From: Escherichia coli
GTDB taxonomy: Bacteria; Pseudomonadota; Gammaproteobacteria; Enterobacterales; Enterobacteriaceae
Direction: 5' to 3' (one strand)
DNA: 64,000 bases
NCBI RefSeq assembly: GCF_001677475.2
Contig: NZ_CP015229.1
Position numbers and translations under genes: made by a program. The stretch's first letter is position 1; each line of letters opens with the position of its first letter. The notes beneath the pieces were generated by a model, which searched no databases, was not told the DNA's origin, and saw only the letters and a list, made by a program, of their open reading frames with translations. Shown in pieces: positions 32,129 through 32,222 of the stretch.

Positions 32129-32144
32129 GATAAAACGTTTTACC
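32129..32144. promoter_or_regulatory. MalI operator-like palindrome GATAAAACGTTTTACC
   Basis: Near-palindrome in malI/malX divergent promoter region. Confidence 0.6.
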
Positions 32145-32206
32145 TTTTATTTATCTTATACCCGCTATTATCGTTGCGTAATGTGATTTATGCCTCACTA
32201 AAATTT

Positions 32207-32222
32207 GATAAAACGTTTTATC
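32207..32222. promoter_or_regulatory. MalI operator-like perfect palindrome GATAAAACGTTTTATC
   Basis: Perfect 16-bp palindrome ~50 bp upstream of malX start. Confidence 0.65.

Follow-up and report, generated by a model that had tools for sequence, protein, structure and literature searches.

The 174-bp intergenic region between the divergent malI and malXY genes contains two 16-bp palindromes, which are almost certainly operators bound by dimers of the MalI repressor. Each operator would repress its own promoter, with a CRP site between them and without looping of the DNA. They were found in a window of 64 kb, by which we mean the whole stretch of DNA analyzed here. The two operators belong to a small and well-studied regulon of E. 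coli, in which MalI represses malXY and MalY counteracts MalT, which activates the maltose regulon. The feature itself is already known, in the form of the experimentally mapped operators of E. coli K-12. It carries little weight as a discovery, and our conservation analysis adds detail without surprise. The case can serve as a positive control, since both operators had been found and correctly identified by a reader working without tools.

Two palindromes in the intergenic region

The malI-proximal operator (O_malI, 32129-32144, no strand assigned) reads GATAAAACGTTTTACC. It is a 16-bp palindrome in which one of the eight pairs is broken, owing to a C rather than a T at base 15. O_malI lies upstream of malI, at a distance of 30 bases from the start codon (ATG at 32098, minus strand), and would fall within the early transcribed region of this gene. 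The malX-proximal operator (O_malX, 32207-32222, likewise without strand) is the perfect 16-bp palindrome GATAAAACGTTTTATC, which precedes the ATG of malX (32273) by 50 bases. The final four bases of O_malX are also the first four bases of a candidate malX -10 hexamer, TATCTT. The earlier note had described one perfect and one near-perfect palindrome close to the malI and malX start codons, respectively. Both palindromes and their coordinates stood up to analysis, but the order, read literally, has to be reversed, as the near-perfect copy is the one beside malI and the perfect copy is the one beside malX.

Searching the 64-kb window with the motif at no more than two mismatches returned O_malI and O_malX only, and no perfect 16-bp palindrome other than 32207-32222 occurs in it. 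The occurrence of both sites is far beyond chance. Allowing three mismatches added a single site, at 49172-49187, when shuffled windows (n = 100) yielded 1.13 matches on average. This palindrome-like 16-mer (GGTAATACGTTTTGCC) was rejected as a MalI target, given its three mismatches to the MalI site and a count at the level of chance. It falls inside a 428-aa open reading frame (48869-50155, minus strand).

Genes flanking the operators

The names malI and malX, which had first been proposed from the letters and translations, agree with NCBIfam, Pfam and the RefSeq annotation of matching E. coli regions. The gene malI (31070-32098, minus strand) encodes a LacI/GalR-family repressor of 342 aa, as indicated by all three of these sources. 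Its product matches the NCBIfam model NF007449 (“Mal regulon transcriptional regulator MalI”) with 669.9 bits, relative to a cut-off of 310, and the alignment covers residues 1-342 of 342. The Pfam domains of the protein are a LacI helix-turn-helix (HTH; PF00356) at residues 8-53 and Peripla_BP_1. The second-best NCBIfam match of MalI is an RbsR model.

On the other side of the intergenic region, malX (32273-33865, plus strand) encodes a PTS maltose/glucose EIICB protein of 530 aa (RefSeq annotation and NCBIfam NF007509, 1119 bits, residues 1-530 of 530). It is followed by malY (33875-35047, plus strand), the second gene in the malXY operon, which encodes a 390-aa PLP-dependent C-S lyase and MalT antagonist. 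This assignment is based on annotation, on the Pfam domain Aminotran_1_2 and on a match of 376 bits to NCBIfam TIGR04350, the model for PatB-family C-S lyases. A mechanically called open reading frame of 598 aa (32069-33865) in the frame of malX begins inside malI, which is on the opposite strand, and spans the whole intergenic region. We place the malX start at 32273 rather than at the start of this longer frame because the family model covers residues 1-530 of 530 and a conserved Shine-Dalgarno sequence, AGGAG, is found just upstream (32261-32265).

Identity with E. coli K-12 and the published MalI site

The locus corresponds to the malX-malI MalI operators of E. coli K-12; the genes and both 16-mers are shared, and nothing of substance differs between them. 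The window itself belongs to another Escherichia strain. Of 241 aligned bases in and around the intergenic region, 240 are the same as in E. coli K-12 MG1655, both operators included. The sole difference is at 32234 (A in the window, T in MG1655), which is outside both palindromes. Of the 5426 complete E. coli genomes, 5412 contain the 174-bp intergenic region with an identity of at least 95%. As a separate observation, the 3-kb malI-malX region (31000-34000) reaches at best 99.3% identity to any complete E. coli genome, with most genomes at 95-99%, and the MalI protein is 100% identical, over the best aligned segment, to MalI of “Escherichia sp.” MOD1-EC7003 and E1V33.

The 16-mer at 32207-32222, GATAAAACGTTTTATC, is letter-for-letter the “MalI DNA site” of oligonucleotides D71689 and D71690 (PMC5543585, supplement 3). 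In that study, Sellars et al. (2017) built a “MalO” array from oligonucleotides carrying the marked site. MalI::mCherry formed foci in vivo when a 20-copy array of the site was present on the chromosome, and no foci formed when the array was absent (PMC5543585). The same authors describe a 16-bp MalI target at the malI and malX promoters, both of which are repressed, and refer for this to two papers by Lloyd and colleagues, from 2010 (FEMS Microbiol Lett 305:28, PMID 20141531) and 2008 (PMC5543585). Independent genetic support for repression of malXY by MalI comes from populations carrying a metC deletion, in which loss-of-function mutations in malI were selected and malY is predicted to compensate for metC (PMC6296033).

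A shared CRP-like site and candidate promoters

The sequence TAATGTGATTTATGCCTCACTA (32179-32200, no strand assigned), centred at 32189.5, is a putative CRP site common to both promoters. Its bases TGTGA (32182-32186), C32194 and CA (32196-32197) do not vary among 78 distinct intergenic sequences, and they coincide with the consensus-critical positions of TGTGA-N6-TCACA. In all 80 loci of our conservation sample (see below), 20 bp separate TGTGA from O_malX. The 2008 paper by Lloyd and colleagues (PMID 19054084) names a role for CRP in the malX-malI region in its title.

Candidate -10 elements are found on both sides of this site. On the malX side, the putative hexamer TATCTT (32219-32224, plus strand) is invariant in 80/80 loci and begins 29.5 bp from the centre of the CRP-like site, the distance predicted for class II activation if CRP sits at -41.5 and the transcript starts near 32231. 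On the malI side, the putative -10 region TATAAGAT (32153-32160, minus strand) contains the overlapping hexamers TATAAG and TAAGAT. The conservation of its TTATA core is 80-90%, the distance from this core to TGTGA is always 21 bp, and a conserved TATAA(G/A) is read on the minus strand from 32160 to 32155. The malI transcript would start at about 32146-32148. The malI hexamer TATAAG (minus strand, 32160 to 32155) and the malX hexamer TATCTT (32219-32224) are exactly mirror-symmetric about 32189.5, which suggests that one CRP dimer could be at class II distance from both promoters. A scan of 32000-32400 for sigma-70 promoter and terminator consensus sequences found none, a result that is uninformative for weak CRP-dependent promoters. 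Given no match in this consensus scan, the -10 assignments are ones that we infer.

The arrangement can be compared with the mapping of the K-12 region. Lloyd, Godfrey and Busby reportedly placed, in 2010, the malX operator at -24 to -9 and the malI operator at +3 to +18, and are said to have described a single CRP site, at -41.5 and -43.5, common to both promoters. Positioned on the window, these operator coordinates would put the transcript starts at 32231 and 32146, which are 85 bp apart, or 41.5 + 43.5 bp around 32189.5. The reported operator positions are thus consistent with the footprint, and -10 candidates that are conserved (malI) or invariant (malX) occur at the places that the reported positions predict.

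Conservation across enterobacteria

The footprint sample consisted of one genome per species and included 80 loci in which the MalI orthologue has an identity of 69-100%. The sampled taxa were Escherichia, Citrobacter, Salmonella arizonae, Enterobacter, Klebsiella, Raoultella, Kluyvera, Lelliottia, Leclercia, Trabulsiella, Pseudocitrobacter and others. A divergent malX is present in 80/80 loci, and both O_malI and O_malX, each with at most two mismatches, occur in 80/80 species. Measured from start to start, the operators are 79 bp apart in 75 loci and 78 bp apart in the other five. Mean column conservation reaches 0.97 in each operator, compared to 0.60-0.77 in the flanks and 0.74 over the whole region. 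In 541,682 bases from the 80 other species, all 160 sites with two mismatches or fewer are within 260 bp upstream of malI, and the search of these bases at the same threshold found no further site elsewhere.

Nearly all variation within the operators occurs at two symmetry-related positions, 2 (A/G/C) and 15 (T/C), with positions 3-14 nearly invariant and the central CG invariant in all 160 sites. When read on the opposite strand, GATAAAACGTTTTACC becomes GGTAAAACGTTTTATC, which is the commonest malX-side variant of the other genera. The repressor shows a similar pattern, as 32 of 46 columns are invariant in the MalI HTH versus 100 of 277 in the effector domain. Operator and repressor are therefore conserved together across species, as is the case for operators of the LacI/GalR family. 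The footprint adds modest support to the operator assignment, with the core T-AAAACGTTTT-A, the CRP site and TATCTT fixed across at least 15 enterobacterial genera. Together with the identity to K-12 and the published MalI DNA site, conservation in 80/80 species supports the suggestion of the earlier note that paired MalI operators control both promoters; to judge from these comparisons, MalI probably represses both promoters in this genome as well.

The pattern of substitution also bears on whether the palindromes could act as RNA hairpins, for example as a stability or translation element in the 5′-UTR of the malI mRNA, rather than as protein-binding DNA. O_malI is probably within the first ~20 nt of this mRNA, where a 7-bp hairpin is possible, and 24-nt folds of the two sites have z-scores of -4.2 and -6.5 relative to shuffled sequences, although such values are trivially expected of palindromes. 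The hairpins are, however, very weak (-3.6 and -2.7 kcal/mol), and the whole leader predicted for malI folds like its shuffled versions (z = -0.53). Furthermore, O_malX is upstream of the predicted malX transcript start, and the changes at operator positions 2 and 15 are one-sided, without compensation. An Rfam search of the whole 64-kb window matched no family. On the strength of the weak hairpins, a leader no better than shuffled sequence and the lack of an Rfam match, a role in RNA structure was rejected as scarcely credible.

Two spacing variants were observed around O_malI. The gap between O_malI and TGTGA (32145-32181 in the window) is 37 bp in the window, in L002, L003, L004 and L006 (Escherichia) and in L078, and it is 38 bp in the 75 other species, E. 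albertii (L005) among them. The 1-bp difference in operator spacing falls between the malI -10 region and O_malI. In three Citrobacter species (L007, L008 and L009) the distance from the malI ATG to O_malI is 53-54 bases versus the usual ~30; the leader may be longer there, or malI may start at another codon.

Proposed mode of repression

We propose that one MalI dimer would occupy each 16-bp inverted repeat, with one HTH contacting each half-site GATAAAAC around the central CG that is typical of the family. O_malX would extend over the spacer of a CRP-dependent class II malX promoter and over four bases at the start of its -10 hexamer. Because of this overlap, bound MalI is predicted to keep RNA polymerase off the promoter and to shut off malXY. 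O_malI would be situated just downstream of the malI transcript start, where bound MalI may block initiation or escape, so that MalI would negatively regulate its own gene. Between the operators, one CRP site with its centre at 32189.5 would serve both the malI and the malX promoter, and the two operators would act separately, each on its own promoter, without looping. The K-12 operators are said to behave in this way, each reportedly repressing its own promoter only and being dispensable for repression of the other (abstract of the 2010 study by Lloyd and colleagues).

The strikingly fixed spacing of the operators, and the constant presence between them of the CRP site, exactly 20 bp from O_malX, could also be taken as signs that the two operators cooperate. 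In that case, the MalI dimers on them would loop the DNA or join CRP in a higher-order complex, as CytR does, and full repression of each promoter would need both operators. There is precedent in the LacI family, in which LacI and GalR form loops and CytR contacts CRP. However, the operator centres are 78-79 bp apart, or about 7.5 helical turns, which puts the dimers on opposite faces of the DNA. In addition, MalI residues 5-340 of 342 align to residues 2-325 of the 360 in LacI, and, unlike LacI, MalI has no counterpart of the C-terminal tetramerisation segment. Looping of the lac or gal type is unlikely given the missing tetramerisation segment and operators that are out of helical phase, and a lac-type looping pair, which has both a tetramerisation domain and operators in phase, was rejected. 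The reported dispensability of either operator at the other promoter likewise contradicts cooperation. The fixed spacing is explained more simply if each operator and its -10 element are tied to the common CRP site, the -10 candidates being mirror-symmetric about it. Overall, we consider a cooperating pair very unlikely.

There is a similarly slender chance that the almost invariant arrangement of O_malI, the 37-38 bp that follow it, the CRP site, a further 20 bp and O_malX, with -10 elements mirror-symmetric about the CRP centre, is the platform for one nucleoprotein complex of two MalI dimers and CRP-bent DNA, in which MalI would also be a CytR-like anti-activator of CRP. If such a complex does form, the two promoters would be coupled under conditions outside those of the published work.

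Relationship to other LacI/GalR-family operators

The two sites share the architecture of LacI/GalR-family operators such as lac O1/Osym, the PurR box, GalR OE/OI and the sites of CytR and RbsR, which are likewise 16-bp inverted repeats with a central CG and a AAACGTTT-type core. The regulators of this family likewise bind as dimers with an N-terminal HTH and a hinge helix, and the repressor gene adjoins its target and is autoregulated. At the locus described here, inverted repeats of ~16 bp with a central CG lie beside malI, whose LacI-family product carries its HTH at the N terminus. The MalI sites differ from LacI/GalR-family operators generally in the outer part of the half-sites, where the bases GATA...TATC are specific.

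A literature search with the literal 16-mers matched only one paper, on Bifidobacterium RbsR motifs (PMC4746261). The consensus TGATAAAACGTTTTATCA, which RbsR2 and RbsR3 are predicted to recognise, contains a 16-mer identical to that of MalI (PMC4746261). These regulators belong to another phylum and another regulator branch, with a regulon of ribonucleoside and ribose genes, and their motif is a computational prediction (PMC4746261). The likeness reflects a recognition code at the level of the family, not the same system. Considered together with the RbsR model that is the second-best NCBIfam match of MalI, it suggests a recognition code common to an RbsR-like branch.

Since the same 16-mer appears in the predicted RbsR2/RbsR3 motif, sequence alone cannot tell which member of the family binds it. 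The main protein on the palindromes might thus be a LacI-family repressor other than MalI (for example an RbsR-like regulator, CytR or PurR), as would be compatible with a central AAACGTTT core that is generic for the LacI family and with the RbsR model being next best for MalI itself. Yet the sites accompany malI in 80/80 species and are found nowhere else in those loci, arrays of the same 16-mer are bound by MalI::mCherry in vivo (PMC5543585), and the high conservation of the MalI HTH parallels the invariant operator core. We therefore attach hardly any probability to a different repressor as the main ligand and retain MalI as the protein that binds both palindromes.

Elsewhere in the window, a palindromic motif is common to the regions upstream of uidA and uidR (29032-29045 and 30075-30090), with TTAGTTAACCAATT preceding uidA and AATTGGTTAACCAATA preceding uidR. 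These palindromes probably serve as operators for the UidR (GusR) repressor, whose gene is at 29372-29962.
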